This document shows positions 1,248 to 27,105 of a DNA stretch of 64,000 bases, one piece after another (position 1 is the first letter of the stretch; each line of letters opens with the position of its first letter). Origin of the DNA: an uncultured Eubacteriales bacterium (GTDB lineage Bacteria > Bacillota > Clostridia > Oscillospirales > CAG-272); NCBI GenBank assembly GCA_934486825.1, contig CAKSQF010000003.1:25771-89770 (forward strand), read 5' to 3'. Position numbers and translations under genes: made by a program. The notes under the pieces are model-generated. The model was not told where the DNA came from. It saw only the letters and a list, made by a program, of their open reading frames with translations, and did not search any database.

Positions 1248-1276
1248 TTGACAACCCGGCTCATGTGTGATAATAT
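1248..1276 (+). promoter_or_regulatory. sigma-A-type promoter of the 13-kb transport operon
   Basis: TTGACA (1248-1253), a 17-nt spacer, then TAATAT (1271-1276), preceded by TGa (extended -10). Confidence 0.55.
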
Positions 1277-1529: not shown

Positions 1530-4500
1530 ATGAAACTGACAAAGAAGACAAGACTGCTTGCCGGATTTCTTGCGGCTCTTCTGATTGTGGGACCGGGAAC
1601 GGTTGCCGCATCGGCTGACGAAAACCGCAGCAGGTCTAATGCTTCTTCGGGTGGCAGCTACGAAACGCCGTCGCTTACCGAGCTTCTCAACACAATCAAG
1701 TATTCGGAGTACAGGGCTAAATACGTTGACATTGCACCCGGTTCTGAGTCCGCCGTACTTGCGGGTGATTCTATCGTTTCGTTTACCGAAAAGATCACGA
1801 ATGCGCCGGGTACAAAGGAAGTTGTTCTCGAAAACGGGACAAAGCTGCTTTATCTGCCTTCCGACGGCGTCGTCGGCTGGACGCTTGATATGCCGTCCGC
1901 GGGCATGTACAACATTGTTATAACCTATTATCCCGTTGAGGATATCGATGCCTCGACCGGTAAGACCGATTCGAAGACGACATCGATCGAAAGAACTCTT
2001 TTTGTCAACGAAAAGGTTCCTTTCTACGAAGCGCGTTTTCTTACCATGACAAAATCATGGGAGGATATTGATTCGACCCTGCAGAAGGATGCCGACGGCA
2101 ATCAGATTTACAAAATCGTCGATGCTTCGGGCAAGGTTAAATACCCCTATGTGGATATAAACGGCAACTGCCTTGAACGCGATCTTTCGTCCGGAAAGCT
2201 TGCTTTTGCCAAGACCGGCGATGCCCTTGATGTTGACAAGCTTATATCCGAGGGATATCAGAAGTATCCCGCATATCAGAACGATATCAACGGCAACGAA
2301 ATAAAGTCGGAAAAGCAGCTTGTGCTTTCCTCGACGAAGACCTATTTCAACGAAACGCTCGGAATCAACACGCGCATCGGAGAAAGAAAAACATATACCG
2401 CATGCGATTCGACCGGTTACTTCACCGAGCCGCTTGAGTTCTACTTTGACAAGGGTGAAAACACAATACAGCTTCAGGCACAGCGCGAATCGATGGCTAT
2501 CGAATCGATCAGCATTGTTCCTGTAGAAAAGAAGATGTCCTACACGGATTATCTGAAGCTTCACGAGGATGCCCGGGACTATTCGGGAAGCGCCGTGAAG
2601 ATTCAGGCGGAATATCCGCTTGCAACTTCGGAAAACACGGTTTACCCGACGAATGACAGAACCTCCTACATAACCGAACCGCAGGACGCGTCGCAGCTGC
2701 TTCTCAATGCGATCGGCGGCGACGGCGGTGAAAAGTGGAAGAACATCGGTCAGTGGGTGCGCTGGAACATCGAGGTTCCCGAGACCGGCTGGTATCAGAT
2801 CACGCTTCGCTTCAAGCAGAGCGTGCTTGAAGGAACCTTCTCGTCGAGAACTCTCCGCGTAGCTACCGCGAGCATGCTTGCCGAAGGTAAGCTGCCCGAG
2901 ATTCCGTTTGAGGAAGCTTATTATCTGCAGTTCAACTACAGAGACGACTGGCAGACCGCGGCACTCAACGACGGTAGCACGACCTTCAAGATCTACCTTG
3001 AAAAGGGCGTCAATCAGATAGAGCTTGAGTCGTCGCTCGGCAACATGGCAGAGATACTCCGCCGTGTAAATGCGTCGATGACGACGGTCAATGCGATCTA
3101 TATCAAAATACTGATGATTACCGGTTCGGAACCGGACTCAAACCGTGACTACGGATTTTACCGCATAATGCCGGATGATGTTGACGAGCTTCTCCGTCAG
3201 GCGAGAGAGCTTGAATCGATCTCCGAGGCATTCAGCAAGGTGACCAAATCGACAGGTTCGCATGCAAAGACCCTTGACAAGGTCGCGATGCTCCTTGAGC
3301 GTATGGGCTCGGACGAGAGCAAGATCGCCGGCAACCTTGACAACCTGAAGGAAAACCTCGGTACGCTCGGAACATGGCTTCAGACCTCGACCGAGCAGCC
3401 CCTTGAGATCGACTACATAATAGCCGAAGCTCCCGGAACCGATGTTGGTAAAACCCACAAAGCAAACGACTCCTTCTTACAGGCGTTCTGGTTTGAGATG
3501 ATCCAGTTCGCACGTTCGTTTGTATCCGATTACAACACTCTCGGATCCATGGAGGTTGTAAGCGAAGGAAACACCGTTGAGGTCTGGACAACGCTCGGAC
3601 GCGACCAGGCTCAGATAATCCGAAATCTTATAAATACCGATTTCAATAAGACTCACCCCGGAATTTCGGTTGAGCTTAAGCTTGTCGCCGGGGGCTCGTT
3701 GCTTCCGTCGGTTCTCGCGGGCGTCGGACCCGATGTTTCAATGGGTCACGGCTCGGGTGATGTAATCAACTGGGCAATACGTTCGGCGGTCGTTCCGCTT
3801 AACGATATGGAAGGAATTGAAGAAGTCGTCGGAAAGTTTGACGAAAAAGAGGGTTATCTCGGCGGACACTTTACCGAGAGCGGTGATTTCGTTGACGGAT
3901 ATTTCACGCAGGCGGCAATTATTCCGCTTGAACTGTTCGGCGAATTCGATCCGGACGGTGACGGCAAGGATTTTGAAACAAACGTGACTCTTTACGGACT
4001 TCCCGAAACCCAGTCCTTCTCGATGATGTTCTATCGTGCCGATGTCTTCCAGAACCTCGGCATCAATCCTCCGAAAACATGGGACGAACTTGTTGCGGCT
4101 CTTCCGATTCTCCAGAACAACCACATGGAAATCGCGATGCCCAACTCGCTCGGAGGACTCAACCTGTTCAACTATCAGATGGGCGGAGACCTTTATGCCG
4201 ACAACGGAAAAAGAATAGGTCTTGATACAGACGTCGCTCTTACCGCGTTCGACTACATGTGCTCCTTCTTCTCAAAATATAAATGTCCTTATACCTACAA
4301 CTTCGCCACCAGATTCAGAACCGGCGAGATTCCGATGGGTATCATGGATTACACGACTTACACACAGCTTTCGGTATATGCAACCGAGATCAGAGGTCTG
4401 TGGGAGTTCGTTGCTCTTCCCGGTGTTGTTCAGTACGATGACGCAGGCAATGTTACCGGCGTTAACAACACATCGGTCTCCGGAGTGTCCGCACTCATCA

Positions 4501-4931
4501 TGCTTCATGATGACAAGCGCACGGAGGAGCAGACCGCTCACGCATGGGAATACATGAAATGGTATGTCGGAGCCGAAAACCAGTCGTCTTACGCAAATGA
4601 GCTGACAGCACTTCTCGGCACCGTTTCAAAGCACAATACTGCGAATGTTGAGGCGCTGTCCTCTCTGTCATGGACTACCAGCGAATACAAGAACCTTATG
4701 AGCCAGTTCAACAATCTTTCGGCTGTCCGCGAGTATCCCGGCGGATATATAATCGGACGTTATGTTTCGTTCGCCTTCCTCGCTGTTTACAATAACAACG
4801 CGGTACCGACCGAATCGATACTTGATTATATAGTCGAGATAAACAAGGAAATCAGCAGAAAACGTAAGGAATTCAACATGACCTATTATGAGATAACTCA
4901 GAACAGCAGTTTTGTTGAAGAAGCGGGTTAG
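1530..4931 (+). CDS. extracellular solute-binding protein (CUT1-like sugar ABC SBP) with a roughly 600-aa N-terminal extension
   Basis: AGGAGG (1514-1519) precedes ATG 1530. The signal peptide is MKLTKKTRLLAGFLAALLIVGPGTVAASA. The C-terminal 500-odd aa look like a family-1 SBP (VEVWTTLGRDQAQIIRNLINTDFNKTHPGISVELKLV..., GLPETQSFSMMFYRADVF). The gene sits directly upstream of permease genes. Confidence 0.8.
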   Translation: MKLTKKTRLLAGFLAALLIVGPGTVAASADENRSRSNASSGGSYETPSLTELLNTIKYSEYRAKYVDIAPGSESAVLAGDSIVSFTEKITNAPGTKEVVLENGTKLLYLPSDGVVGWTLDMPSAGMYNIVITYYPVEDIDASTGKTDSKTTSIERTLFVNEKVPFYEARFLTMTKSWEDIDSTLQKDADGNQIYKIVDASGKVKYPYVDINGNCLERDLSSGKLAFAKTGDALDVDKLISEGYQKYPAYQNDINGNEIKSEKQLVLSSTKTYFNETLGINTRIGERKTYTACDSTGYFTEPLEFYFDKGENTIQLQAQRESMAIESISIVPVEKKMSYTDYLKLHEDARDYSGSAVKIQAEYPLATSENTVYPTNDRTSYITEPQDASQLLLNAIGGDGGEKWKNIGQWVRWNIEVPETGWYQITLRFKQSVLEGTFSSRTLRVATASMLAEGKLPEIPFEEAYYLQFNYRDDWQTAALNDGSTTFKIYLEKGVNQIELESSLGNMAEILRRVNASMTTVNAIYIKILMITGSEPDSNRDYGFYRIMPDDVDELLRQARELESISEAFSKVTKSTGSHAKTLDKVAMLLERMGSDESKIAGNLDNLKENLGTLGTWLQTSTEQPLEIDYIIAEAPGTDVGKTHKANDSFLQAFWFEMIQFARSFVSDYNTLGSMEVVSEGNTVEVWTTLGRDQAQIIRNLINTDFNKTHPGISVELKLVAGGSLLPSVLAGVGPDVSMGHGSGDVINWAIRSAVVPLNDMEGIEEVVGKFDEKEGYLGGHFTESGDFVDGYFTQAAIIPLELFGEFDPDGDGKDFETNVTLYGLPETQSFSMMFYRADVFQNLGINPPKTWDELVAALPILQNNHMEIAMPNSLGGLNLFNYQMGGDLYADNGKRIGLDTDVALTAFDYMCSFFSKYKCPYTYNFATRFRTGEIPMGIMDYTTYTQLSVYATEIRGLWEFVALPGVVQYDDAGNVTGVNNTSVSGVSALIMLHDDKRTEEQTAHAWEYMKWYVGAENQSSYANELTALLGTVSKHNTANVEALSSLSWTTSEYKNLMSQFNNLSAVREYPGGYIIGRYVSFAFLAVYNNNAVPTESILDYIVEINKEISRKRKEFNMTYYEITQNSSFVEEAG

Positions 4932-4983
4932 TCCTGTAAAACAATGAAAAATACGAAATTTCAGAATAAGGAGAGGATTGCAG

Positions 4984-5952
4984 GTGTCAGCTAAAACGGC
5001 TAACAATACTCAGGACGTGCAGGTAAAAAAGCCCGTCGCGAGAAAAGATATGACCAAAATGCAGTGGACACTCAAGGAAATGAGACGCAACTGGTTTGCA
5101 TACATAATGCTTGCCCCGTACTATCTTATCTTCCTGACATTCACCATCATTCCCGTCGTTGTATCGCTTGTCCTGAGCTTTACATCATTCAATATGTTGG
5201 AGCCTCCGACATTTATATTCATGCAGAATTACATCAGACTCTTTCTTGACGATGATATCTTCATTCTTGCATGTCAGAACACGCTTATATTTGCGGCGAT
5301 CACGGGTCCCGTATCATATTTGCTTTCATTCCTCGTTGCATGGTTCATCAACGAGCTTTCGCCGAAGATCAGAGCGATCGTTACTCTGATCTTCTATGCG
5401 CCGAACATTGCCGGATCGGTATACATGATCTGGTCGGTGGCATTCTCGTCCGACTCGTACGGATATGTCAACGGTCTGCTTCTTTATCTCGATCTTATCG
5501 ACAAGCCGATAGCTTTCTTCCAGGATGCCGATTACGTCATGCCGCTTTGTATAGTGGTTGCACTCTGGACGTCGCTCGGCACGGCGTTCCTGTCATTCAT
5601 TGCGGGTCTTCAGGTTGTTGACCGTTCGCTTTACGAAGCGGCAGCGGTTGACGGTGTCAAGAACCGCTGGCAGGAGCTTTGGTATGTCACACTGCCGTAC
5701 ATGAAGCCTCAGCTCATGTTCGGTGCGATACTTGCAATAACCGGATCATTCGGTTTCGGCGGTATCGTTGACGCACTTGCCGGTAACCCGTCGGTCGATT
5801 ACTGTGCATGGACGATAACCCATCACCTGAACGACTACGGCGGCGCAAGGTATGAGATCGGTTATGCGTCTGCGATCGCAACGGTGCTCTTTATCATAAT
5901 GATAGGTGCAAACGCGGCGGTCAAGAAAATTCTATCGAAAGTGGGGCAGTAA
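4984..5952 (+). CDS. sugar ABC transporter permease (MalF-type, pair 1)
   Basis: Multi-TM protein with the EAA loop AGLQVVDRSLYEAAAVDGVKNRWQELWYVTLPYMKP. GTG 4984 lies 7 nt after GGAGAGG; the ORF track opens at TTG 4978. Confidence 0.85.
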   Translation: MSAKTANNTQDVQVKKPVARKDMTKMQWTLKEMRRNWFAYIMLAPYYLIFLTFTIIPVVVSLVLSFTSFNMLEPPTFIFMQNYIRLFLDDDIFILACQNTLIFAAITGPVSYLLSFLVAWFINELSPKIRAIVTLIFYAPNIAGSVYMIWSVAFSSDSYGYVNGLLLYLDLIDKPIAFFQDADYVMPLCIVVALWTSLGTAFLSFIAGLQVVDRSLYEAAAVDGVKNRWQELWYVTLPYMKPQLMFGAILAITGSFGFGGIVDALAGNPSVDYCAWTITHHLNDYGGARYEIGYASAIATVLFIIMIGANAAVKKILSKVGQ

Positions 5953-5954
5953 CG

Positions 5955-6836
5955 ATGGCAAGAGTATCGAAATTAAGAACAAGAAAACATACCGTCGTTC
6001 TGAACCGTTCAAAGGGTGGAGACGCCGGAATCGCTTTCTTCCTTATAATTATGGGCGCATTCATGTTCCTGCCCATGCTTTATACGATCATGCAGTCGCT
6101 CAAGCCGCTTGACGAGCTTTGGGTTTTCCCTCCGAAATTCTATGTTACGTCACCGACGCTCAAGAATTTCAAGGACCTGTTCAAGCTGATGAATCAGAAC
6201 TGGGTGCCTTTTTCCAGATACCTCTTCAACACGATTCTTATATCGGTCGGAGGAACCTTCGGTAACCTGTTCCTTTCATCAATGGCGGCATACGTCCTGT
6301 CAAAGATCAAGTTCCCGGGCAGGGACGGACTGTTCCAGCTTATCGTTCTTTCGCTGATGTTCCATCAGACGGTCGGTGCGATAGCGAACTTCATTATAAT
6401 GTCGAGACTTCATTGGGTCGATACGCTCTGGGCGATAATCATACCCGCATGGGGATCGACGCTCGGACTATATCTTATGAAACAGTTCATGGAGTCGTCG
6501 GTTTCGGACGCGGTTCTTGAATCCGCGCGCCTTGACGGTGCAAGCGAACTTCGTACCTTCTGGACGATAGCGATGCCGATGGTCAAACCGGCATGGCTGA
6601 CGCTTATAGTTTACTCCTTCAAAGATCTGTGGAACACTGGCTCCACGATCTATGTTTACTCCGAACAGCTCAAGACCTTCAGCTATGCGATAGGACAGAT
6701 CCTGTCGGGCGGTATCGTGCGTTCGGGTGCGGGAGCAGCCTCAACCGTCGTTATGATGATCGTGCCGATTGCGGTGTTTGTCATATCGCAGTCGAACATT
6801 ATCGAGACGATGGCATCGTCCGGTATGAAGGATTAA
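5955..6836 (+). CDS. carbohydrate ABC transporter permease (MalG-type, pair 1)
   Basis: EAA loop ESARLDGASELRTFWTIAMPMVKPAW, six predicted TM segments, and a 3-nt gap to the upstream permease. Confidence 0.85.
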   Translation: MARVSKLRTRKHTVVLNRSKGGDAGIAFFLIIMGAFMFLPMLYTIMQSLKPLDELWVFPPKFYVTSPTLKNFKDLFKLMNQNWVPFSRYLFNTILISVGGTFGNLFLSSMAAYVLSKIKFPGRDGLFQLIVLSLMFHQTVGAIANFIIMSRLHWVDTLWAIIIPAWGSTLGLYLMKQFMESSVSDAVLESARLDGASELRTFWTIAMPMVKPAWLTLIVYSFKDLWNTGSTIYVYSEQLKTFSYAIGQILSGGIVRSGAGAASTVVMMIVPIAVFVISQSNIIETMASSGMKD

Positions 6837-6844
6837 GGGGGTAT

Positions 6845-9022
6845 ATGATGAAGAGATTTACAAAAACATTTGCTGTTTTTTGCGCAATACTGATGATTGC
6901 TCTCGGCAGTGTATCTTCGTTTGCCGCTTCATACAGCACATATACCTATTCGATCGACGGCGAACAGCTGCCGTCACCGGATGCCTACACTCCCGAAAAG
7001 GTTGTCGATTCAAAGAAGATCGGTCTTGAAAAGGCGCTCAATGCGCCGACGGCGATCGAGGTCGATAATGACGGCAATGTTTATATTGCCGACCCCAACA
7101 ACAACAGAATCGTTGTTCTCAACAGGTATTATGCATACAAGTATGAAATAAGCACCTTTGTCAACAGCGACGGTGTTGCGGACTCGCTCAGCGGGGCAGA
7201 GGGACTTTTCATATGGGAAGGCTATACGATCGAGAATGAGGAATACACAAAAGAAAAGCTCATTTACGTAGCCGATACACTGAACCGCAGAATTGTGGTG
7301 TTTGATGCCGAAGGCAATTACGTGCGCACGATAAGAGAGCCTGCCGGAGAGGTTATCAACGCAAGCGAAATCTACAGACCGGTAGCTCTTGCGGTTGACT
7401 CTTCGGGAAGAATATATGTCGTTTCGTCAATGACATATCAGGGAATCATCTCACTTACGAACGAAGGTGAATTTGCCGGATACATAGGAGCTCAGAAGGT
7501 TACCTACAACGCACTCCAGCTCATCTGGAGAAAATTCCAGAGTGCCGAGCAGCTGGCAAAGCAGGATAAGAACATTTCGACCGAATACAACAACATCGCA
7601 ATAGACGATGAGGGCTTTGTTTACGTAACGAACGGTGCGATCGAGGAATCGACGCTTTCAAGTGCGATCCGCTCGGGCAACAAGAATTATGCTCCGGTAA
7701 AGAAGCTCAATACATCGGGAACCGACATAATGAGAAGAAACGGTTTCTTCATGCCCGCAGGTGAGATAACATTCAGATCCTATGCCCGCGCATCCGAAGG
7801 AAACACCGTTCCTTACGGTCCGTCGCACATCGTTGACGTGGCACTCGGACCGGCAAACACATGGTCGATAATCGATGATAAGAGATCAAAGATCTACACA
7901 TACGACGACAACGGCAATCTTCTGTTCGCATTCGGCGACATGGGTACCCAGATGGGTAACATGCAGAAGGTATGCTCAATCACCTATCAGGGTGAAAAAA
8001 TGATCGTGCTCGATAAGCAGACATCTTCCTTTACGATTTATTCGAGAACCGATTACGGCGATCTGCTTATAACAGCGATCGAAAACAACAACAAGCGTAT
8101 GTATTCGCGTGCGCTTGACGACTGGAACGAAATACTCAAGAGCAACAACAACTTCGATGCAGCGTACATAGGAATAGGAAAGGCATACTACCGTCTCGGA
8201 CAGTGGGAAACCGCAATGGACTATTTCGAGCGCGCATACGATACCAAAAATTACTCGGATGCATTCGGCAAATGGCGTAAGGAATGGGTAGAAAAGTACA
8301 TCTGGGTCATTCCGATTGTGGTAATTGTCTTCTGCGTTGCGGTTGCCGAATTCTTCAAGTTCGCAAACAGAGTAAACAGAAAAGCAACTGTTTCGGGCAA
8401 AAAGAAGACCTTCTGGGAAGAAGTGCTGTACGCATTCCACCTCATATTCCATCCGTTTGACGGATTCTGGGATCTGAAGCATGAAAAGCGAGGCTCTGTA
8501 CGCGCGGCATTCTTTATTCTTGCGCTTGCAGTCGCATCCTTTGCTTACCAGAGCATCGGACGTGCATACATTTTCAACCCGCGCGGCGGATATACAAGTA
8601 TAATCGGGCAGCTGTCCGGACTTCTTGTGCCGATAATCCTCGGTTCTACGGCAAACTGGTGTCTGACAACACTGTTTGACGGTGAAGGAAGCTTCAAGGA
8701 TATTTTTGTTGCGATCTGCTATTGTCTTACGCCGATAGTAATGTTTGTTCCGCTTGCAACACTTCTCACACATATTGTCACGAATTCGGAGGCTGGTTTT
8801 GTGAACCTTCTTCTCGGACTCTGCTATGTCTGGGTGGGAATGCTCTTGTTCTTCGGAACTATGGTTACACATGATTACTCTATGGGCAAGAACGTAATTA
8901 CCCTTTTGGGTACCGCGATATGTGCCTGCGTTATCATGTTCATCATGGTACTGTTCTCGAGTCTGCTCATGAAGATGGTATCCTTCGTTTCGCAGATTAT
9001 TACCGAAGTAACATACGGATAA
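6845..9022 (+). CDS. secreted NHL-repeat beta-propeller / TPR / Yip1-type multi-pass membrane fusion protein
   Basis: Signal peptide MMKRFTKTFAVFCAILMIALGSVSSFAASYS. NHL-like repeats include YIADPNNNRIVVLN, YVADTLNRRIVVFD, GRIYVVSS and GFVYVTNG. A TPR-like segment reads AAYIGIGKAYYRLGQWETAMDYFERAY. The C-terminal roughly 220 aa contain 5-6 TM helices typical of Yip1-domain proteins. Confidence 0.7.
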   Translation: MMKRFTKTFAVFCAILMIALGSVSSFAASYSTYTYSIDGEQLPSPDAYTPEKVVDSKKIGLEKALNAPTAIEVDNDGNVYIADPNNNRIVVLNRYYAYKYEISTFVNSDGVADSLSGAEGLFIWEGYTIENEEYTKEKLIYVADTLNRRIVVFDAEGNYVRTIREPAGEVINASEIYRPVALAVDSSGRIYVVSSMTYQGIISLTNEGEFAGYIGAQKVTYNALQLIWRKFQSAEQLAKQDKNISTEYNNIAIDDEGFVYVTNGAIEESTLSSAIRSGNKNYAPVKKLNTSGTDIMRRNGFFMPAGEITFRSYARASEGNTVPYGPSHIVDVALGPANTWSIIDDKRSKIYTYDDNGNLLFAFGDMGTQMGNMQKVCSITYQGEKMIVLDKQTSSFTIYSRTDYGDLLITAIENNNKRMYSRALDDWNEILKSNNNFDAAYIGIGKAYYRLGQWETAMDYFERAYDTKNYSDAFGKWRKEWVEKYIWVIPIVVIVFCVAVAEFFKFANRVNRKATVSGKKKTFWEEVLYAFHLIFHPFDGFWDLKHEKRGSVRAAFFILALAVASFAYQSIGRAYIFNPRGGYTSIIGQLSGLLVPIILGSTANWCLTTLFDGEGSFKDIFVAICYCLTPIVMFVPLATLLTHIVTNSEAGFVNLLLGLCYVWVGMLLFFGTMVTHDYSMGKNVITLLGTAICACVIMFIMVLFSSLLMKMVSFVSQIITEVTYG

Positions 9023-9043
9023 AAGGAAGGAGTACGGATATAA

Positions 9044-12000
9044 ATGAAAACAAGTAATTTCAGCTTCAATGCGAAAGTACTTTCACTGCTTCTTGTTATT
9101 CTGATGATCATGGGCACGCTGTCTTCGCTCTTTATCCTTCCTGTGTACGCACAGGAGGGTGACGGAACGGGGGGGACGACCGGCGGAGATAATACCGAGG
9201 TTGTCGATCCCGATGAGGAGGAAATCAAAAATCCCACCATCGAGGAAGCTATTGCCGCATATCTTACGAAAGAATACGAAACAAGGGAAGAAAAGCTTGC
9301 GGTTATGACCGAAAAGCTTACAAAAGGAGACTTCAAGTTCTTCTGCGACCCGTATACGGGGGAGATTGCCGTTCAGAATACGGTAACCGGTCAGATACTC
9401 TTCTCTAATCCCTATGACGTGGCAACAGTAAAAACAGAAACGGTCAAAGAGCGACTTCTTTCACAGGTTGTTGTGTCCTTCAAGGATCTTGCCAACAACG
9501 GACAGGTCCGTGAGCTCAACAGCTACAAGGATGCCGCCGCAAACGGTCAGGTGACCGTAAAGAATATCAAAAACGGTATCCGCGTGGAGTATACGCTCGG
9601 TAAGGAAGCTTCCAAGAAGCTTATGCCTTACTGGATCGAAGCATCAAGATTCGAAAAGATGATTCTTTCCAACATAACCGTTGAGTATGACCTCGGAAAG
9701 GCGATCTCGTATTATGACCGTAAGGACGTAAACGATTCGTCACTGCCCGCAGCGACGATCCGTGAGATCAACAATGCCTACGCCTGCACAAAATCAACAT
9801 ATCAGAAACTCAATGTCACACCGATGTACGACCGTACCGAGGTTGACGAAAACGGTGAAACGGTTTATGTTGCCGAATATACCGACCATACCGGTAAGCT
9901 TGTAAGCCACAGATACAAAATGTCCGACAAGCTGGTTATATACACGGTAGAGCCGAGTGTTACTCTTTCCGAGAAGATGTCCAACACAATGGAAGGCTAC
10001 ACAAAGATGTATGCCCCCGACTACAACTATGAGGAAAGAGACTACGATATTGAAATCACCGGATATGTCGGAGACGAAGCCGGAAATGCAACCTTCCGTC
10101 TTGCTCTTGAATATACGGTGGACGATACCGGATTCAGCGTCAGTCTTCCCGCAAACGGAATCCGTTATGACGCGGATAAATACCGCCTGAATTACATAAC
10201 GCTGCTGCCTTATCTCGGAGCATCCTCCGACGAGTATCCCGGATATACCTTTATGCCGGACGGCTCGGGTGCAATAATCAGAAATGAGGATATCACCGCA
10301 GACGGCAGATCGTATACGGTTTCCGGTAAGGTTTACGGACCCGATTACGCATATCACAAGCTTACCTATAACGGCAAGTCGGAAATAATCCGCATGCCCG
10401 TTTTCGGTAATATCGAAAGTCTTGCCGATCCGATCGAAGTCGGACGCAAGATTGTGCCCGCACTTGATATTTCCGGTAAGCCGGCATACAACCCGGTAAC
10501 CGGAGAGCCGATACCTCAGTACTGGCTGGTCGATGAAGAGGAAGTAACCACCGTTATCGACGAGTACGGCGATATCGTGAAATATGTGCTCAAGGATGAG
10601 CCTGACGTTGAAGTCGAGAGAGTAAAGACGCAGTCAAACGTAATCTATTACAGACTTGACGAAAACGGAAAACGTGTTTATCTTACAGAGCCGATCTACG
10701 AATACGAATATCATCCGCAGGGCTTCTTCGCAATAATCGAAGAGGGCGAGTCGCTTTGCGAGATCACATCGAACCACGGAGGTAATATAAGCCACAAGTA
10801 CAGTTCGATATATGCGTCGGTCTATCCGGAAAGCACAGACAGCTACAACCTTGCCGATTCGATATCTGTCGGACAGGATGCCGAATGGACTGTCGTTTCG
10901 GAGAGAAAATATACCGGTCTGTTCAAGATCCGCTATATAATGCTTTCTTCTGCCGAGGGCGCTCAGTATGAGGCAAGCTACATGGGAATGGCGAACGCAT
11001 ACAGAGATTATCTTGACAAGAACGGCGTTATCTCGCTTATCGATGATGCCGCAAAGGATATTCCGCTCTATATTGAGTCGTTCGGTATGATAAAGACCGA
11101 GGATGTCGTGATGACAATTCCGGTCATGGTTGATACACCCCTTACGACATTCGGCGATATACAGACAATGTATAAGACGCTTGCCGAGAAGGGAATCGGA
11201 AATATCAATTTCCGCCTGACCGGCTTCAATAAGGAGGGCACCGGTTACCAGTTTGCTCCGTCGGTTGTTAAATTTGAAAAGGTGCTCGGCGGAAACAAGG
11301 GTTACGGCGAACTTCTCAAGGATGCCGAGAACAACAACTACGGTGTTTTCCCCGAATTTGACTTTGCCAATGTTAACTCGTCGGCATGGTTTGACGGATT
11401 CAGCTTCAAGAATCAGACTGTACGTACGATAGATGACCGTTACTCATATAAACGTGAATATGATGCAACATATCAGAACTTCACGTATATGGGATCGGTT
11501 GCGGTGTCACCCTGTGCATTCAGCGATCTTTTTGCAAAATTTGCAAGAAAGATGGATAAGCTCGGTGTAAACGGAATATCGGTATCGACGCTCGGTTCCG
11601 ACCTGAATACCGATTTCGACGAGAAAGAGCCGTACAACCGCGAGGATGACAAGGCATTTACGGCAGAGCTTCTCGGAAATATGGCTGAAAAATACAAGAA
11701 CATAATGATCGACGGCGGAAATGCTTATACATGGAAATATGTAAAGCATATCCTGAATGTATCGCTTGACAGCTCGCGTTATCTGAGAGCAAGCCAGTCG
11801 ATACCGTTTATGGGTCTTGTTCTTCACGGATCGGTATACCTTGCAGGCAAGCCCACGAACATGCAGGGCAATGTAAGATACGAGATGCTGAAGATAATCG
11901 AAAACGGCGCATCGCCCTACTACACGCTCTCCTATCAGAACACGCAGGAGCTTAAGGAATACAGCAATCTGACAAAGTATTATTCGGTCGATTTCAACAT

Positions 12001-12532
12001 CTGGCTGAAGGATCTTGTCGAAACCTATAATGTTATCAATTCGGCTCTTTGCGATGTCCAGGAATCCCGTATAAAGAATCATACCTTTATAAGCGGTACG
12101 AGAGTGTTCGGCGAGAAGGACCGCGATCAGTACGAGGCAGAGCTTGCCGTGGTTCTTGCGAAATATCTTGAAATGTACAATGCAGACCTCATGAAGAAGA
12201 TAAAGGACAGCTACAGAAGCGGTCTTATCACACTTCCCGAAGGATATGACTTCAAGAAGAACGAAGAAGGTAAGATAATCCCGCCCGAGGGCTTTGATCT
12301 GGAGGCATTCGAAGAGGATTATATAACCTTTGAAAAATACAATAAAGAAACCGCAGCGACAAGTATTGACGATTACTCGATAGTATACGAAGAGTACGAC
12401 AACGGAATATCGTTTGTCCTCAATTTCAATGATTTCAACGTATCGGTTGAGATCGGCGGAAAGACCTATACCGTTTCGGCAACAGGTTTCGTAAAGATCG
12501 ATGCAAGCGGCAATGTCGTCGCAAGTAACTGA
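9044..12532 (+). CDS. large secreted or membrane-anchored protein, DUF5696-like; putative uncharacterised glycoside-hydrolase-like
   Basis: N-terminal hydrophobic anchor LSLLLVILMIMGTLSSLFILPVYA, then a Gly/acidic linker. The ORF is 1162 aa and operonic with sugar permeases. Segments such as GISVSTLGSDLNTDF and SIPFMGLVLHGSVYLAG resemble (beta/alpha)8 glycosidase strands. The DUF5696 assignment is from memory of similar annotated proteins and is not verified. Confidence 0.5.
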   Translation: MKTSNFSFNAKVLSLLLVILMIMGTLSSLFILPVYAQEGDGTGGTTGGDNTEVVDPDEEEIKNPTIEEAIAAYLTKEYETREEKLAVMTEKLTKGDFKFFCDPYTGEIAVQNTVTGQILFSNPYDVATVKTETVKERLLSQVVVSFKDLANNGQVRELNSYKDAAANGQVTVKNIKNGIRVEYTLGKEASKKLMPYWIEASRFEKMILSNITVEYDLGKAISYYDRKDVNDSSLPAATIREINNAYACTKSTYQKLNVTPMYDRTEVDENGETVYVAEYTDHTGKLVSHRYKMSDKLVIYTVEPSVTLSEKMSNTMEGYTKMYAPDYNYEERDYDIEITGYVGDEAGNATFRLALEYTVDDTGFSVSLPANGIRYDADKYRLNYITLLPYLGASSDEYPGYTFMPDGSGAIIRNEDITADGRSYTVSGKVYGPDYAYHKLTYNGKSEIIRMPVFGNIESLADPIEVGRKIVPALDISGKPAYNPVTGEPIPQYWLVDEEEVTTVIDEYGDIVKYVLKDEPDVEVERVKTQSNVIYYRLDENGKRVYLTEPIYEYEYHPQGFFAIIEEGESLCEITSNHGGNISHKYSSIYASVYPESTDSYNLADSISVGQDAEWTVVSERKYTGLFKIRYIMLSSAEGAQYEASYMGMANAYRDYLDKNGVISLIDDAAKDIPLYIESFGMIKTEDVVMTIPVMVDTPLTTFGDIQTMYKTLAEKGIGNINFRLTGFNKEGTGYQFAPSVVKFEKVLGGNKGYGELLKDAENNNYGVFPEFDFANVNSSAWFDGFSFKNQTVRTIDDRYSYKREYDATYQNFTYMGSVAVSPCAFSDLFAKFARKMDKLGVNGISVSTLGSDLNTDFDEKEPYNREDDKAFTAELLGNMAEKYKNIMIDGGNAYTWKYVKHILNVSLDSSRYLRASQSIPFMGLVLHGSVYLAGKPTNMQGNVRYEMLKIIENGASPYYTLSYQNTQELKEYSNLTKYYSVDFNIWLKDLVETYNVINSALCDVQESRIKNHTFISGTRVFGEKDRDQYEAELAVVLAKYLEMYNADLMKKIKDSYRSGLITLPEGYDFKKNEEGKIIPPEGFDLEAFEEDYITFEKYNKETAATSIDDYSIVYEEYDNGISFVLNFNDFNVSVEIGGKTYTVSATGFVKIDASGNVVASN

Positions 12533-12548
12533 AAAGGAGGGGAATAAA

Positions 12549-13529
12549 ATGAATAACGCACAGGCGGCAGTTAAGCAAAAAGCGCCTCAAAAGACGAAAA
12601 AGCGCAAGATCGTTTCGCTTGATAAGAAGAAGGCGCGCGCAGGTTGGTTTTTTGTTGCACCCTTCCTTATCGGATTTGTGCTGATCTACATTCCGATAAT
12701 CTTCAACTCAATACAGTCAAGCTTCTTCTCGGTAAAGCAGGGTCAGATATCCGAATTTGTGGGATTTGATAACTATGCATACGTGCTCTTTACCAATCCC
12801 GACTTCGTAACGACCCTGACATCGGGAATACGTCAGCTCGTCATTGATATTCCCGCGATAGTAATATTTTCACTGTTCATGGCAGTGCTTCTGAACCAGA
12901 AAATGTTCGGCAGAGCGATATTCCGTGCGATCTTCTTCGTGCCGGTTATTCTGTCAACGGGACTTATTGCGGATATCGATGCTTCCAATGTTATGAACCA
13001 GTATATGAGCGGCACCGACAGTACCGATACGTCGGCGAACATCACAAATGCTTCATCGGCATCCGACATTATTTCAATGGCAGATGTGGCGTTCCTGTTC
13101 GAGAGCATGAAGATCGGTACCGGACTTGTAAAGTATGTCGTACAGCTTGTAAATGACGTGTACAACATAATAAACCGTTCGGGAGTTCAGATGCTGATAT
13201 TCCTTGCGGGACTTCAGTCAATCTCTCCGGCAATATACGAATCATGTTCGATCGACGGCGCGACCGCATGGGAAACCTTCTGGAAGATAACATTCCCGAT
13301 GATAAGCCCGATGATACTTGTCAACACGATATATACCGTAATTGACTCGTTTACATCGTCGGACAGTTCGGTCATGAAATTTATCCTGAATTTCTATTCG
13401 ACCGGCGGCGCACAGTCGCGCGTACAGGCAACCGCGATGGGTTGGATATACTTCCTGATCGTTATCGCGATTATCGCGGCGGTTTCGGGAATACTGTCGG
13501 CGTATATCTTCTACCAGAGAAGAGATTAA
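12549..13529 (+). CDS. sugar ABC transporter permease (MalF-type, pair 2)
   Basis: AGGAGG precedes ATG 12549. EAA loop AGLQSISPAIYESCSIDGATAWETFWKITFPM. There is an inserted Ser/Thr-rich extracytoplasmic loop. Confidence 0.85.
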   Translation: MNNAQAAVKQKAPQKTKKRKIVSLDKKKARAGWFFVAPFLIGFVLIYIPIIFNSIQSSFFSVKQGQISEFVGFDNYAYVLFTNPDFVTTLTSGIRQLVIDIPAIVIFSLFMAVLLNQKMFGRAIFRAIFFVPVILSTGLIADIDASNVMNQYMSGTDSTDTSANITNASSASDIISMADVAFLFESMKIGTGLVKYVVQLVNDVYNIINRSGVQMLIFLAGLQSISPAIYESCSIDGATAWETFWKITFPMISPMILVNTIYTVIDSFTSSDSSVMKFILNFYSTGGAQSRVQATAMGWIYFLIVIAIIAAVSGILSAYIFYQRRD

Positions 13530-13540
13530 GGAGGTCGGCT

Positions 13541-14566
13541 ATGAATGCACAGCAAACACAGACAAAGATAAAGAAGGAATCAAAGAACAAGATCCGCGTT
13601 GATTTTGACAGAACCTCACGTTGGACCCGCTTCAAGATCAAATATCTTTCGGCGAGCTTCCTCGGACAGGTGATCTTCAAACTCTTCAGACTTGTACTGC
13701 TTCTCGGAATATCCTATGTCATACTTTTCCCGTTTTTCTCCAAAATAGCGTCCTCTTTCATGAGTCCGAGTGACTTCGTTGACGTAACGGTCAAGTTGAT
13801 ACCGAAGAATCCGACGCTCAACACCTACAAGCAGATAATCAGAGAAAACAACTACTTTGAAGCACTCTTCAATACAGCGGTACTTTCTCTGCTCTGTGCC
13901 GTAATACAGACATTTATCTGCTGCATCATCGGCTACGGCTTCGGCAAATACCGTTTCAAGGGCAGTAAGCTGCTTTTCGCATGCGTCCTGCTTACGATGA
14001 TAGTTCCGCACAAGATACTTCAGTTCTCGCTCTTCAATGAGTTCAGATATTTTGACATATACGGAATAATCAAAGCCATAACCGGCAAGACAATCAAGCT
14101 CACCGGTACTTATTGGCCGCTTGCGATCCTTTCGTTTACCGGTCTTGCGTTCAAGAACGGTCTGTACATCTATATGATGAGACAGTTCTTCAGAGGCGTG
14201 CCGGACGAACTTGAGGAATCCGCATATATCGACGGATCGGGTGTGTTCAGAACGTTTATACAGATCATTATCCCGCTTTCGATCCCGATGATGATTACAA
14301 TATTCCTCTTCTCGTTCAGCTGGCAGTGGACAGATAACTTCTATACCACGTTGCTTATTCCGGGTACGGCAAAATCGATCAAGCTGCTCCCCTCGATTAT
14401 AGAGGTACCGAAAACGCTTGATACCAATTACGCCGGAGGAAACCTTTATACCTCGGCGATCAGAAACACCTGCGGACTTCTTATTATAGCTCCGCTGATT
14501 CTGATATATATGTTCTGCCAGAGATATCTTATACAGGGTATCGAACGCTCGGGTATTACCGGCTAA
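13541..14566 (+). CDS. carbohydrate ABC transporter permease (MalG-type, pair 2)
   Basis: AGGAGG precedes ATG 13541. EAA loop EESAYIDGSGVFRTFIQIIIPLSIPMM. Multi-TM protein. Confidence 0.85.
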   Translation: MNAQQTQTKIKKESKNKIRVDFDRTSRWTRFKIKYLSASFLGQVIFKLFRLVLLLGISYVILFPFFSKIASSFMSPSDFVDVTVKLIPKNPTLNTYKQIIRENNYFEALFNTAVLSLLCAVIQTFICCIIGYGFGKYRFKGSKLLFACVLLTMIVPHKILQFSLFNEFRYFDIYGIIKAITGKTIKLTGTYWPLAILSFTGLAFKNGLYIYMMRQFFRGVPDELEESAYIDGSGVFRTFIQIIIPLSIPMMITIFLFSFSWQWTDNFYTTLLIPGTAKSIKLLPSIIEVPKTLDTNYAGGNLYTSAIRNTCGLLIIAPLILIYMFCQRYLIQGIERSGITG

Positions 14567-14632
14567 AAAACGAAAAATGCGTTTTCCGTTTCTGCCAAAT
14601 CGCATTTGCGGAAAAACGCCGACAAAAACAAA

Positions 14633-14664
14633 ACGTCCGCGGACATTTGTCCGCGGACGTTTTG
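14633..14664. terminator. bidirectional rho-independent terminator
   Basis: Perfect 12-bp stem ACGTCCGCGGAC / GTCCGCGGACGT with loop ATTT, flanked by an A-run and a T-run. Confidence 0.8.
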
Positions 14665-14696: not shown

Positions 14697-14729
14697 GCTC
14701 CCGCACAACCTTTGCAGCCGTGCGGGAGT
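14697..14729 (-). terminator. hairpin terminator downstream of metA
   Basis: GCTCCCGCAC ... GTGCGGGAGT stem, flanked by an A/T-rich tract on the minus-strand 3' side. Confidence 0.5.
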
Positions 14730-14755: not shown

Positions 14756-15673
14756 TTACCTGATTTCTTTCAGATCATATGGGGTGGTCTGATATACGAA
14801 ATAGTTAAGCCAGTTTGAATAGAGAAGATTTGCGTGTGAACGCCAGCTTACAACAGGCTCTCTGCTGTCGTCGTCATCCGGAAAATAATTCTCCGGAATG
14901 TCTATCGGAAGTCCCGCAGACTTGTCGCGCCGATATTCTTTGGCAAGCGTATCCGCGTCGTATTCGCTGTGTCCGGTTATGAAGATCTGCCTTCCGCGAT
15001 CTGTCATAAGCGCATAAATGCCCGCTTTGTCAGATGATGCGAGAATCTTAAGCTCGGGAACCTTTTCAATGTCTTCGCGCCTGACCGTCGTGTGGCGGCT
15101 CTGAGGGACCATAAATATATCGTCAAATCCGCGCAGCAGCATGGAGGAACGACGTTCAACGCGGTGCGGAAATATTCCGAACAGCTTTTTTTCAAGCGGG
15201 TACTTGTTTATTCCGAAATGATAGTACAGTCCCGCCTGCGCGCCCCAGCATATGTGGAACACAGAGGTGACGTGCGTTTTGCTCCACTCCATGATTTCGC
15301 AAAGCTCATTCCAGTATTCGACCTCTTCAAACTGCATGTGCTCGACCGGCGCACCGGTTATTATCATTCCGTCGTAATTGTTCTTCCGGATGTCACCGAA
15401 GGTTTTGTAGAAAGCCAGCAGATGCTCGGAAGGTGTATTTTTCGATTCGTGGGTTTTTGTATGGATAAGCTCCATCTCCACCTGAAGCGGGGTGTTGCCG
15501 AGAAGCCTCGCAAGCTGGGTTTCTGTTGCGATCTTTGTAGGCATAAGGTTCAGAATCAGTATTCTGAGCGGGCGGATGTCCTGTCCCTCTGCCCGTGTTT
15601 TTGTGATCGTGAAGATGTTCTCCGCATGAAGAGTTTCTGCGGCGGGCAGTCCGTTTGGTATCTTTATCGGCAT
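14756..15673 (-). CDS. metA: homoserine O-acyltransferase (MetA family)
   Basis: N-terminus [53 protein letters not shown] and [15 protein letters not shown] are classic MetA motifs. Confidence 0.9.
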
Positions 15674-15691
15674 TTTTCCGCCTCCTTGAGT

Positions 15692-16984
15692 TTACTTTTG
15701 TGATTTGATAAGCGCCTGCTCAATGTCCGCAATTATGTCATTGACATTTTCAATGCCTATCGACATGCGGATAAGATCGGGCGATACGCCTGCATCAACA
15801 AGCTGTTCGTCGTTGAGCTGCCTGTGAGTTGTCGATGCCGGATGAAGAACCGACGTGCGCGCATCCGCAACATGGACGACAATCTGTGCAAGTCTGAGAC
15901 TGTCCATGAATTTTACCGCTGCATCTCTGCCGCCCTTTACGCCGAAGGATATTACGCCCGACTGACCGTTCGGAAGATACTTCTTTACAAGCTCGCGGTC
16001 GGGGGAGGATTCAAGCCCGGGATAGTTTACCCATGCAACTTTGTCGGAACCCTCAAGGTAACGTGCAACCGCAAGTGCGTTTTCACTGTGACGGATTATG
16101 CGGAGCGGGAGCGATTCAAGCCCGAGATTAAGAATGTAGGATGCGATCGGTGCTGGAGTCATGCCGAGATCGCGCATGAGCTGTGTGCGCGCCTTGGTGA
16201 TATACGCCTTTTTGCCGAACGATTCGGTGTACACGATTCCGTGATATGATTCGTCCGGGGTTGACAGTTCGGGGTAACGTCCGTTTGCGGTCCAGTCGAA
16301 GTTGCCCGAATCGACGATCACACCGCCGACGACCGACGCGTGTCCGTCCATGTATTTTGTCGTTGAGTGGATCACTATGTCGGCTCCGAACTCAAAGGGA
16401 CGGCAGAGAACCGGGGTCGCAAAAGTGTTGTCCACAATGAGCGGAATACCGTGCCGATGCGCAAGATTTGCGTATCTTTCGATGTCAAAAACCTTGAGAA
16501 CCGGGTTGGCAATTGTCTCTCCGAATATAAGGCGGGTCTTGTCGTCGATAAGAGCCTCTATCTGCTCGTCAGTCATATCGGGCGTTGCAAATCTGACCTC
16601 AATGCCCATTCTTTTCATCGTGAAGGCGAGAAGATTTGTGCTTCCGCCGTATATCGTTGTCGAAGCTATGATATTCTGCCCGCAGGAGGTGATGTTGAAC
16701 ACCGAGATAAATGTTGCCGCCTGCCCGGACGAGGTGCAGAGCGCACCGACGCCCCCTTCCATGTCGGAGATTCTTTCCTCAACGGCAGAAACGGTCGGAT
16801 TTGATATTCTTGAATACATATGACCGTCAACCTTGAGGTCAAACAGCTCTCCGAGATAATCGGATGAATCGTACTTGTATGTTGTAGACTGATAAATCGG
16901 TAGAATACGCGGCTGACCGTTTGACGGGGTATATCCCGATTGCACCGCCTTCGTTTCTATTTGGTAATCCTTCTGATCTTTCAT
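15692..16984 (-). CDS. metY: O-acetylhomoserine sulfhydrylase (PLP-dependent, MetY/Cys-Met metabolism family)
   Basis: Contains TTYKYDSSDYLGELFDLKVDGHMYSRISNPT, and HSTTKYMDGH with the PLP lysine. It lies 18 nt upstream of metA. ATG 16984 is preferred over GTG 16990. Confidence 0.85.
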   Translation of the reverse strand: MKDQKDYQIETKAVQSGYTPSNGQPRILPIYQSTTYKYDSSDYLGELFDLKVDGHMYSRISNPTVSAVEERISDMEGGVGALCTSSGQAATFISVFNITSCGQNIIASTTIYGGSTNLLAFTMKRMGIEVRFATPDMTDEQIEALIDDKTRLIFGETIANPVLKVFDIERYANLAHRHGIPLIVDNTFATPVLCRPFEFGADIVIHSTTKYMDGHASVVGGVIVDSGNFDWTANGRYPELSTPDESYHGIVYTESFGKKAYITKARTQLMRDLGMTPAPIASYILNLGLESLPLRIIRHSENALAVARYLEGSDKVAWVNYPGLESSPDRELVKKYLPNGQSGVISFGVKGGRDAAVKFMDSLRLAQIVVHVADARTSVLHPASTTHRQLNDEQLVDAGVSPDLIRMSIGIENVNDIIADIEQALIKSQK

Positions 16985-17034
16985 TGTCACACTGCCTTTC
17001 TTTTTTGACGGTATATCAGACCGTCATTCCGATA

Positions 17035-20502: not shown

Positions 20503-20568
20503 AAACGAAGCTCATATAAAAGGCAGATATTTATATGCAGATATTTATATAAAGGAGACTATGGTAGT

Positions 20569-21777
20569 ATGTTTCAGAAAAAAGAATGTGTTGCAATGCT
20601 TCTTGCCGGCGGTCAGGGAAGCAGGCTGTATACTCTGACCGAGAAAACCGCGAAGCCTGCCGTATCCTTCGGCGGGAAATACCGGATAATCGATTTTACC
20701 CTCTCAAACTGTATAAATTCGGGAATTGACACTGTCGGTGTGCTCACTCAATACCAGCCGCTTGTGCTCAACGAATATATAGGCAACGGCGCTCCGTGGG
20801 ATCTTGACCGCAATATGGGGGGAGTCATGGTGCTTCCGCCGTATCAGAAGATGAGCGGTACCGACTGGTACAAGGGAACGGCAAACGCCATATGCCAGAA
20901 CCTTGCATATATAGACAGATACGATCCCGATTACGTGCTTGTTTTGTCGGGTGACCATATTTACAAGATGGATTACTCGGCGATGCTTGATTTCCACAAG
21001 GAAAAGGAAGCCGATTGCACGATCGCGGTTCTTTCGGTGCCGATAGAGGAAGCCTCCAGATTCGGTATAATGAATACCGATGATGACAACAGGGTTTTTG
21101 AGTTTGAGGAAAAGCCGGCACATCCGAAATCAACCAAGGCATCTATGGGTATATACATTTTCAGCTACAAAAAGCTGAAGCATTATCTTATTGAAGACGA
21201 TCACACCGAGGGCTCGTCGAACGATTTCGGCAAAAACATAATCCCGACCATGCTGAGAAACGGAGAGAGAATGTACGCATATCCGTTCAAGGGCTATTGG
21301 AAGGATGTCGGAACCATAAACTCGCTTTGGGAAGCGAACATGGATCTGCTTGGGAACCCGCCGAAGTTCAATCTTCATGATAATGACTGGAGAATTTTCT
21401 CAAGGTCCGAGTCGGACCCGGGGCAGTATGTCGGCGACGGGTCGGAGATATCGGATGCCTTCATAACCGAGGGTTGCGAGATATACGGTACGGTTGAACA
21501 TTCGGTGCTTGGCGACGGGGTTTATGTTGCACCGGGCGCGGTGGTGCGCGACAGCGTAATTATGGAGAACACAACGATCGGCGAAAATGCGGTTGTTGAA
21601 TATTCGATTGTCGCCGCAAACACCGATGTCGGTCGCGGTTCGCACATAGGAGACCGCCATGAGAATGGCGCAAAGATTACGGTCGTCGGTTCGGAGCTCA
21701 GACTGCCCGAAGGCACACGGATTGCAGGCGGCGAAATGGTAAACGAAAAGAAGCTCAGAGAGCTCATAAACGGTTAA
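20569..21777 (+). CDS. glgC: glucose-1-phosphate adenylyltransferase, catalytic subunit
   Basis: [43 protein letters not shown], plus a C-terminal left-handed beta-helix. Confidence 0.92.
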
Positions 21778-21790
21778 GGGAGGGAGAAAG

Positions 21791-22927: not shown

Positions 22928-22953
22928 ACAATTATTTGAAAGAAGGTAATTAT

Positions 22954-24378: not shown

Positions 24379-24432
24379 CGGCATTGCCGCAGGACGGTCG
24401 GGACAAACGAAAAATAAGTATTCCCGCAATAC

Positions 24433-24468
24433 AAGCAATGCCGCTTATGCGGCATTGCTTTGCTTGTT
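24433..24468 (+). terminator. rho-independent terminator or processing hairpin between glgA and glgP
   Basis: 12-bp stem AAGCAATGCCGC / GCGGCATTGCTT with loop TTAT, followed by TGCTTGTT. Confidence 0.65.
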
Positions 24469-24570
24469 GATACTGCTTAAGTACAAAAGGAAGATTGCTT
24501 TGGCGACATTCTGCATATAATAATAAAGAGCGGATGCATCGCGCAAAGACAAGTCGGAAAGGAATTGAAA

Positions 24571-27081: not shown

Positions 27082-27105
27082 TCGGAAGCTCAGGACGAGG
27101 TTTAT

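Follow-up and report, generated by a model that had tools for sequence, protein, structure and literature searches.

The stretch of DNA considered here, called the window below, is 64,000 nucleotides of contig CAKSQF010000003.1 (assembly GCA_934486825.1, forward strand, positions 25,771 to 89,770), from an uncultured Eubacteriales bacterium of the Oscillospirales lineage CAG-272. One of its genes encodes a protein in which a secreted NHL β-propeller and a TPR-like helical stack are joined to a polytopic Yip1 membrane domain. This NHL-TPR-Yip1 gene is the fourth of seven that lie closely packed on one strand at 1530-14566 and form a cassette: a giant solute-binding protein (SBP), two permeases, the NHL-TPR-Yip1 protein, a DUF5696 protein and two more permeases (Table 1). 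In the reading that we propose, and to which we would give a probability of about one half, the seven genes encode a self-contained import machine of the ATP-binding cassette (ABC) type that harvests glycans, and the NHL-TPR-Yip1 protein is one of its membrane subunits, dedicated to it and without enzymatic activity.

The cassette and the domains of its fourth product

The reading frame of the NHL-TPR-Yip1 gene is open and continuous. Its start codon lies 8 nucleotides past the stop codon of the upstream permease gene, with a ribosome-binding site, AAGGGGG, ahead of it. The encoded domains are, in order, a signal peptide, a six-bladed NHL propeller, a TPR-like helical stack, one transmembrane (TM) helix, a conserved cytoplasmic linker and a Yip1 region of five TM helices. 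In Pfam, the Yip1 family PF04893 scores 62.1 bits against a cut-off of 28.6 (E 8e-17), and the match, at residues 532-700, spans positions 2-170 of the 173 in the profile; 21 of 21 fused and stand-alone relatives match PF04893 as well. NHL scores 35.4 bits against a cut-off of 20 (E 9e-9), and another propeller repeat, SBBP, reaches 32.4 bits (cut-off 20.5). The window protein is a true Yip1-domain and NHL-propeller protein. Two subfamily motifs mark the Yip1 core, NWCLTTLxDGEGSFKD (residues 604-619) and THDYS (residues 675-679). The TPR families fall slightly short of their cut-offs (TPR_1, 25.8 bits against 27.8; TPR_2, 24.1 against 27), so that 'TPR-like' is the fitting term; consensus TPR designs are weak sequence matches in the PDB (E 0.002-0.01).

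A single-chain AlphaFold model of the protein, made from an alignment of 48 homologues, has a predicted local distance difference test score (pLDDT) of 77. In the model an N-terminal signal helix is followed by a closed six-bladed propeller at residues 48-401, with strand 48-54 closing the last blade. Next come five stacked helices (403-485), a long TM helix (488-516) and two short amphipathic helices, and the Yip1 TM helices occupy residues 552-577, 584-611, 617-642, 647-676 and 680-724. By Foldseek, the modeled ectodomain matches NHL propellers, among them the NHL domain of TRIM71 (E 4e-16, target TM-score 0.75), Brat and the PknD-derived Pizza designs. By sequence, the propeller matches Pizza6 and the PknD sensor propeller in the PDB (E 8e-18 to 1e-12), as well as the NHL domains of TRIM71, TRIM2 and Brat; the Yip1 module has no PDB match by sequence. 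Which way does the protein face? Hydropathy was combined with lysine plus arginine counts over the 48 homologues, which average 8.8 after the first TM helix versus 3.1 before it. These counts place the propeller and TPR-like stack outside the cell and the segment at residues 508-551 in the cytoplasm.

A first-pass annotation, made by reading the sequence, had described a secreted propeller and a TPR pair facing outward, with a polytopic Yip1 domain in the membrane. Pfam, the model and the charge counts bear this out, and the Yip1 and NHL profile matches on which it had made its reading depend both lie above the Pfam cut-offs. Its 'at least four' NHL blades do belong to an NHL propeller, which in the model has six. 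The TPR pair survives as a helical stack in the model, but not as a Pfam match above cut-off. The annotation had also read 6845-9022 as a single continuous open reading frame (ORF), and it was right to do so: among database homologues, each of the top 120 (120/120) is full length, at 699-743 residues, with the same domain set, and the window ORF is thus not a frameshift artefact. Two genes run together by a frameshift are ruled out by the continuous frame and by hundreds of full-length orthologues.

The seven genes of the cassette are separated by −32 to 46 nucleotides if the longest ORFs are taken, and both overlaps disappear if the later ATG codons are used for permeases 3 and 4. An EAA-type coupling motif is present in all four permeases, and so two complete translocators are encoded. 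The cassette thus has what a CUT1-type importer has in its SBP_bac_1 binding protein and its BPD_transp_1 permeases with the EAA motif, but not the cognate ATPase gene. No ATPase gene (ABC_tran) was found in the cassette, either in the window or in the first 85 loci described below. The nearest ABC_tran genes in the window, at 49134-51019, adjoin a gene for an ABC-2 membrane protein and are probably those of an exporter. By analogy with MsmK/MsmX, we assume that the ATPase of the cassette is supplied in trans. We note separately that the two permease heterodimers (4978-6836 and 12549-14566) share their operon with one SBP and no ATPase.

The sugar-transport operon of the first-pass annotation is well founded in the SBP_bac_1 protein, the four BPD_transp_1 permeases and the DUF5696 protein. 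The wording was too narrow, however, since transport alone does not describe the operon, which also encodes, in the DUF5696 protein, 1162 extracellular residues with a predicted fold like that of glycoside hydrolase (GH) families 129 and 101, and an SBP of 1133 residues without a lipid anchor.

Table 1. Features of the cassette and its surroundings, in window coordinates
Feature	Position	Strand	Remarks
Promoter-like site	1248..1276	+	TTGACA, 17 nt, TAATAT, extended TG; consensus match only
Giant SBP	1530..4931	+	1133 aa; type-I signal peptide without lipobox; Pfam SBP_bac_1
Permease 1 (BPD_transp_1)	4978..5952	+	EAA motif EAAAVDG at aa 220
Permease 2 (BPD_transp_1)	5955..6836	+	EAA motif ESARLDG at aa 189
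NHL-TPR-Yip1 fusion gene	6845..9022	+	725 aa plus stop
Signal peptide	6845..6925	+	aa 1-27; SFA/AS, type-I cleavage-like site, putative, from sequence
Six-bladed NHL β-propeller, extracytoplasmic	6986..8047	+	aa 48-401; Pfam NHL and SBBP, PDB sequence matches, model, Foldseek
TPR-like helical stack, membrane-proximal	8051..8299	+	aa 403-485; Pfam sub-threshold, model
Linker TM helix ('TM0')	8306..8392	+	aa 488-516; hydropathy, model
Cytoplasmic juxtamembrane segment	8393..8497	+	aa 517-551; contains HPFDGFWDLKHEKRGS
Five-TM Yip1 core	8498..9019	+	aa 552-725; Pfam, model, motifs
DUF5696 protein	9044..12532	+	1162 aa; Pfam 1.4e-131; type-I signal peptide
Permease 3 (BPD_transp_1)	12549..13529	+	EAA motif ESCSIDG; longest ORF from 12501, ATG 12549 matches homologue length
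Permease 4 (BPD_transp_1)	13541..14566	+	EAA motif ESAYIDG; longest ORF from 13442, ATG 13541 matches homologue length
GC-rich 16-bp hairpin between convergent cassette and metA unit	14629..14664		scored as minus-strand terminator (T-run)

Occurrence of the cassette, and its fused and split forms

How widely is this arrangement found? A search with the whole protein gave more than 4400 matches; the top 120, mostly from uncultured Clostridia, are carried at NCBI under the name 'YIP1 family protein'. Two independent routes led to the loci themselves. In the first, a DUF5696 scan of one genome per species gave at least 559 confirmed stretches, and the best 80 of these, from species-representative genomes, were taken together with five loci found earlier. 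In 85 of these 85 loci, as far as the contig permits, the order is N-terminal part of the SBP, C-terminal part of the SBP, permease, permease, NHL, TPR, Yip1, DUF5696, permease, permease. The second route made no use of DUF5696; a motif-based alignment of Yip1 gave 80 further metagenome loci, and again only the same cassette was seen, contig permitting. (P0322 as a single query gave no metagenome matches.) The two routes total 165 loci, with the cassette context throughout where the contig is long enough. The one departure in gene order among the 165 is L166, on metagenome contig Ga0208693_1000009, which has permease 2, NHL-TPR-Yip1, DUF5696, permease 3, permease 4, SBP, permease 1 and permease 2; this looks like two tandem cassettes or a rotated order. 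When the ORFs flanking the 85 loci were clustered, no eighth conserved gene, regulator or ATPase emerged, only scattered housekeeping genes. Carriers amount to at least several hundred species-level genomes, and the best 80 are almost all uncultured Clostridia of gut and rumen.

The Yip1 module was also searched alone against 1.84 billion representative proteins, with 1647 matches at E ≤0.001 and 198 at E ≤1e-30. Among the best 150 are 101 full-length fusions (631-998 residues) and about 18 complete stand-alone proteins (193-226 residues). The stand-alone proteins form a family of more than 1000 members and carry the same motifs, HPFDGFWDLKHEKRGS, NWCLTTLxDGEGSFKDI and THxYS. Cultured Bacillaceae that encode them include Neobacillus vireti, N. 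bataviensis, Caldibacillus lycopersici, Alkalihalobacillus trypoxylicola and Amphibacillus marinus. The Yip1 subfamily is confined to the cassette.

In the Bacilli the protein is split. The cassettes of Neobacillus vireti, Amphibacillus marinus and a metagenome-assembled genome labelled Atribacteria have two adjacent genes in place of the fusion. The first encodes an NHL-TPR protein of about 490 residues whose C-terminal end consists of a TM anchor plus a short basic tail, and the second a Yip1 protein of 207-208 residues. The counterpart of TM0 is thus the C-terminal anchor of the separate NHL-TPR protein. At the Neobacillus vireti junction, the only one read, the ATG of the Yip1 gene overlaps the NHL stop codon and stands behind an AAGGAGG site. 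The first-pass annotation had called for a survey of how often Yip1 proteins are fused to propellers in operons of this type; in a second set of 83 loci (80 plus three split loci known before), 71 carry the fusion, 7 have the split form and 5 are too short to show either. Because the two halves are fused in some lineages and an adjacent pair in others, there is Rosetta-stone evidence that they act together.

The split cassettes have a further gene. Downstream of permease 4 lies an extra lipoprotein SBP of 460-496 residues (L086, 15472-16962; L087, 15297-16718; L088, 16667-18049), which the cassette of the window lacks. In the split-form lineages the second pair of permeases may be served by a separate SBP.

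Fusions with inserts also occur. P0248 (998 residues), P0253 (912 residues) and P0267 (883 residues) have inserts of 150-270 residues before the first blade or within the first blades, with the Yip1 part unchanged; one insert is repeat-rich in appearance, and two are acidic and helical. Names can mislead in this family. P0449, a stand-alone Yip1 protein of 208 residues from Neobacillus bataviensis, goes by 'NHL repeat containing protein' at NCBI and UniRef, although NHL repeats are absent from it; fused relatives are the probable source of the name.

Missing anchors, conservation and the role of the protein

The two giant proteins of the cassette raise further questions. In the SBP, the SBP_bac_1 domain is only the last ~440 residues, and is preceded by an N-terminal extension of ~650 residues with weak matches to the carbohydrate-binding module CBM35 and nothing useful in the PDB by sequence. 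The DUF5696 protein was modeled as a single chain (pLDDT 82.5; predicted TM-score, pTM, 0.72). Its closest Foldseek relatives are the GH129 enzymes ZgGH129 (5opq; E 2e-24, target TM-score 0.70) and NagBb (5wzn; E 8e-18), followed by the GH101 endo-α-GalNAc-ases and then by GH31 and GH36. The fold match to GH129 takes in the N-terminal domain, the barrel and the C-terminal β domain. By sequence, there is no significant match in the PDB, with GH129 at E 0.32 in a profile comparison. On the strength of the model, then, a GH129/GH101-like glycosidase fold is predicted for DUF5696. The protein has invariant acidic residues, such as D797, D857 and E953, which are not mappable to catalytic positions. 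With gut and rumen Clostridia making up almost all of the best 80 carriers, and given the predicted fold, the cassette may point to a hitherto unrecognised way in which glycans are harvested in animal guts.

How are these proteins kept at the cell? A binding protein without an anchor would be lost from a monoderm cell. In the window, the giant SBP and the DUF5696 protein have no lipobox, C-terminal TM helix or sorting signal. Among orthologues, a classical lipobox is absent from 102 of 106 giant SBPs and 155 of 161 DUF5696 proteins, and AxA-type sites are found instead. As a control, the ordinary SBPs encoded directly downstream of split cassettes have textbook lipoboxes (LAAC, LVAC and AVSC). 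The propeller/TPR platform is the sole firmly anchored extracytoplasmic module in the cassette.

The facts to be explained, then, are the architecture and topology of the protein, the constancy of the cassette, its fused and split forms, the absence of lipoboxes and the glycosidase-like predicted fold of DUF5696. We infer from them a set of physical contacts, a tethering role and a direction of information or assembly. Docking to the permeases (to one heterodimer or to both), or else to the ATPase supplied in trans, would fall to the five-TM Yip1 module, which is strongly conserved in its cytoplasmic-face motifs. On the outer face, the TPR-like stack and the propeller, carried there by the single TM helix, would serve as a docking platform that holds the giant SBP and the GH129/GH101-like DUF5696 protein close to the membrane, over the translocators. 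Oligosaccharides released from a bound polymer would be passed directly to the importer, so that binding, cleavage and import would be coupled.

Several points weigh against this proposal. The signal peptides of the SBP and the DUF5696 protein might stay uncleaved, in which case the two proteins would anchor themselves. A few SBP and DUF5696 orthologues resemble lipoproteins (L102 and L111, for example), and yet the NHL-Yip1 gene is kept. An alignment of 142 DUF5696 sequences runs to 4249 columns and is too gappy to assign catalytic residues. Finally, the conservation of the cytoplasmic face hints that the protein does more than tether, be it by contact with an ATPase, by gating or through an intramembrane binding site.

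This last point deserves a closer look. The best-conserved blocks of the protein (residues 530-551, 604-619 and 675-683) are all on the predicted cytoplasmic face, which suggests contact with cytoplasmic loops of the permeases or with the ATPase supplied in trans. Conservation is highest in the juxtamembrane segment with HPFDGFWDLKHEKRGS; a block of the TPR-like stack, residues 430-440, is also among the best conserved. Might the Yip1 core then control how the two permease heterodimers assemble, in what stoichiometry, or how they couple to the ATPase? It could, for example, choose which translocator engages a shared ATPase, with the propeller reporting the occupancy of the SBP, the enzyme or the substrate; the mechanism would be allosteric gating, not tethering. 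Besides the placement of the conserved blocks, this idea draws on the presence of two complete pairs of transmembrane domains with EAA motifs beside one SBP and no ATPase gene, and on YknW, which alters the oligomeric state or assembly of its ABC partner (PMC4338810). Yet the protein has no known nucleotide- or ATPase-binding motif, and the idea leaves unexplained why the giant SBP and the DUF5696 protein lack anchors. We consider it rather doubtful as it stands, though it overlaps the tether model and both could be true.

Could the propeller itself be an enzyme, such as a lyase or lactonase, or another catalyst in the manner of Vgb lyase, SMP30/SGL or PAL, working alongside DUF5696? There are weak Pfam matches to SGL and MRJP, Foldseek matches to virginiamycin B lyase, and one homologue annotated by JGI as 'sugar lactone lactonase'. 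The SGL and MRJP scores are all under the family cut-offs, however, and no His, Cys or Glu that might form a metal or catalytic site is invariant in the ectodomains of divergent members, which argues against catalysis. What is invariant there is structural: the Asp, Arg, Gly and Tyr of the NHL blades. We judge an enzymatic propeller very unlikely.

Rates of divergence bear on another possibility, namely that the propeller is a receptor that binds a glycan, or a ligand of the cell surface or host, and so concentrates it for DUF5696 and the SBP. Over 110 complete loci, median identity to the window is 58-71% for the permeases, 53% for TPR, 52% for Yip1, 49% for NHL, 46% for the SBP domain, 40% for DUF5696 and 36% for the SBP N-extension. 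The NHL, TPR and Yip1 parts thus diverge faster than the permeases and more slowly than DUF5696 and the SBP N-extension, and the latter comparison points to core machinery rather than a specificity determinant. One would expect a propeller that set specificity to diverge more than these two, not less. Moreover, the propeller matches no carbohydrate-binding family in Pfam, and the giant SBP already has CBM35-like modules (as it does in L087). On the other hand, NHL propellers serve as scaffolds for the binding of ligands, PknD provides, in its extracellular sensor propeller, the closest bacterial relative by structure, and the ectodomain insert variants of 880-1000 residues could reflect different ligands. 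On balance we think a substrate-binding receptor unlikely.

The first-pass annotation had also spoken of an outward-facing receptor, and had supposed that the membrane module might gate, assemble or regulate the adjacent translocators. A receptor is not favored: the protein has no signaling output domain, there is no regulator in the 85 loci, and the propeller diverges more slowly than the parts that would be expected to meet the substrate. That the protein serves the adjacent translocators is well supported by the 165-locus cassette, the split and fused forms and the precedent of YknW; gating, assembly or regulation goes a step further and is an inference.

The tether model has a more ambitious form, which we put forward tentatively. 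The cassette would encode a multi-subunit 'utilisome' of a kind not recognised before, lying in the cytoplasmic membrane of monoderm bacteria, in which a Yip1 hub assembles two ABC translocators and, through NHL and TPR, captures an unanchored SBP and a member of a new family of GH129-like enzymes. If this is true, the Yip1 fold would have a conserved role as an adaptor in the membrane around which multi-protein complexes form, its bacterial clients being ABC transporters.

Relation to known systems, and neighboring features

The closest precedent among bacterial Yip1 proteins is YknW of B. subtilis and B. amyloliquefaciens, a protein associated with the ABC transporter YknXYZ, whose assembly it modulates (PMC4887032, PMC4338810). 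Like the window protein, YknW is a polytopic Yip1-family protein encoded within an ABC operon, and it is an accessory that modulates assembly of a complex and does not translocate, a part that the window protein may share. The differences are considerable. The partner of YknW is a MacB-type exporter with a membrane-fusion protein, whereas the partners of the window protein are BPD_transp_1 permeases of type-I importers, and YknW has no ectodomain. The kinship of the two was compared at the level of the shared Pfam family only. Yip1 genes also recur beside ABC exporter genes in bacteriocin clusters. These clusters (PMC10707071), with YknW as a counter-example, show that the first-pass annotation overstated matters in saying that bacterial Yip1 homologues have no assigned function.

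In eukaryotes, the Yip1/YIPF proteins share with the window protein a full-length PF04893 domain, five TM helices and a conserved cytosolic segment before the first TM helix. The window domain differs in being fused (or translationally coupled) to a secreted propeller, and in its own motifs, HPFDGFWD, NWCLTT-DGEG and THxYS. As far as we know, bacteria have no Rab or COPII machinery, and because they lack Rab GTPases the eukaryotic role in Rab/vesicle traffic is not expected here.

The propeller recalls PknD of M. tuberculosis (PDB 1RWI), its best bacterial sequence match in the PDB (E 1.4e-12). Both proteins have an extracellular six-bladed NHL propeller, one TM helix and an intracellular or membrane module. 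The output module of PknD is a Ser/Thr kinase, however, whereas the window protein has a Yip1 membrane domain and no signaling domain.

As a transport system, the cassette resembles CUT1 importers of the MalEFG/MsmEFG type and the polysaccharide-utilisation loci of Gram-positive bacteria. SBP_bac_1, MalF/MalG-type permeases with EAA motifs, the absence of an ATPase gene from the operon, and a co-encoded protein with a glycosidase-like predicted fold are common to them. The cassette departs from the CUT1 type in its two permease pairs, its obligatory NHL-TPR-Yip1 subunit and its lack of a regulator gene, and also in its SBP, which is single, 950-1130 residues long, extended by ~650 residues at the N-terminus and without a lipobox. 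Two permease pairs, one non-lipoprotein SBP of 950-1130 residues and an obligatory extra membrane subunit are departures from the textbook Gram-positive importer. DUF5696 and the GH129/GH101 enzymes (5OPQ, 5WZN and SpGH101, 3ECQ) are alike in predicted multi-domain fold but have no significant sequence similarity. With the SusCD 'utilisome' of Bacteroidota the cassette shares an idea only, that of surface binding, hydrolysis and transport in one complex from one locus. There is no homology; SusCD is an outer-membrane, TonB-dependent system, whereas the cassette would form its putative complex around ABC transporters in the cytoplasmic membrane of a monoderm.

How much of this is new? The literature that we searched holds no description of the cassette, no mention of DUF5696 or PF18952, and no pairing of NHL repeats with Yip1 in a bacterial system, only unrelated human proteomics; among the papers listed, the phrase 'YIP1 family protein' is absent in a context of SBP and GH. 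The family is already in databases as 'YIP1 family protein' and 'DUF5696 domain-containing protein', so that what is new is an obligatory Yip1-based subunit of an ABC glycan importer. Numerous as bacterial Yip1 proteins are, they have, to our knowledge, hardly been studied. Here is a distinct Yip1 subfamily that, in all the loci examined, has a fixed and interpretable set of partners, which makes prokaryotic Yip1 function approachable by experiment, and the cultured carriers (Neobacillus, Amphibacillus, Alkalihalobacillus and Caldibacillus) make the mechanism testable.

Some features around the cassette remain to be mentioned. Between the promoter-like site and the start codon of the giant SBP is a leader of ~250 nucleotides (1277-1529) with terminator-like hairpins at 1362-1377 and 1435-1455. 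Rfam has no match anywhere in the window. A conserved riboregulator was considered and rejected, the leader being conserved in the nearest relative, L039, only; it may be a lineage-specific attenuator, or nothing. At the other end, the hairpin at 14629-14664 is a perfect palindrome that would form on either strand, and so would also end the cassette transcript. It is followed by a second strong hairpin (13 bp, 14698-14728) and by a metA/PLP-sulfhydrylase (pyridoxal phosphate) unit at 14756-16990, on the minus strand and convergent with the cassette.

Beyond lies an ORF of 313 residues (30082-31023, minus strand) with no Pfam match at E ≤0.01. An ordinary glycogen operon occupies 18565-29025 on the plus strand, with a GlgB-like branching enzyme, the nucleotidyltransferases GlgC and GlgD, GlgA synthase, glycogen phosphorylase and a GH13 amylase. 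A protein of 1113 residues of the α-mannosidase family GH92 is encoded at 32299-35640 on the minus strand; a region of ~240 residues precedes its GH92 N domain.

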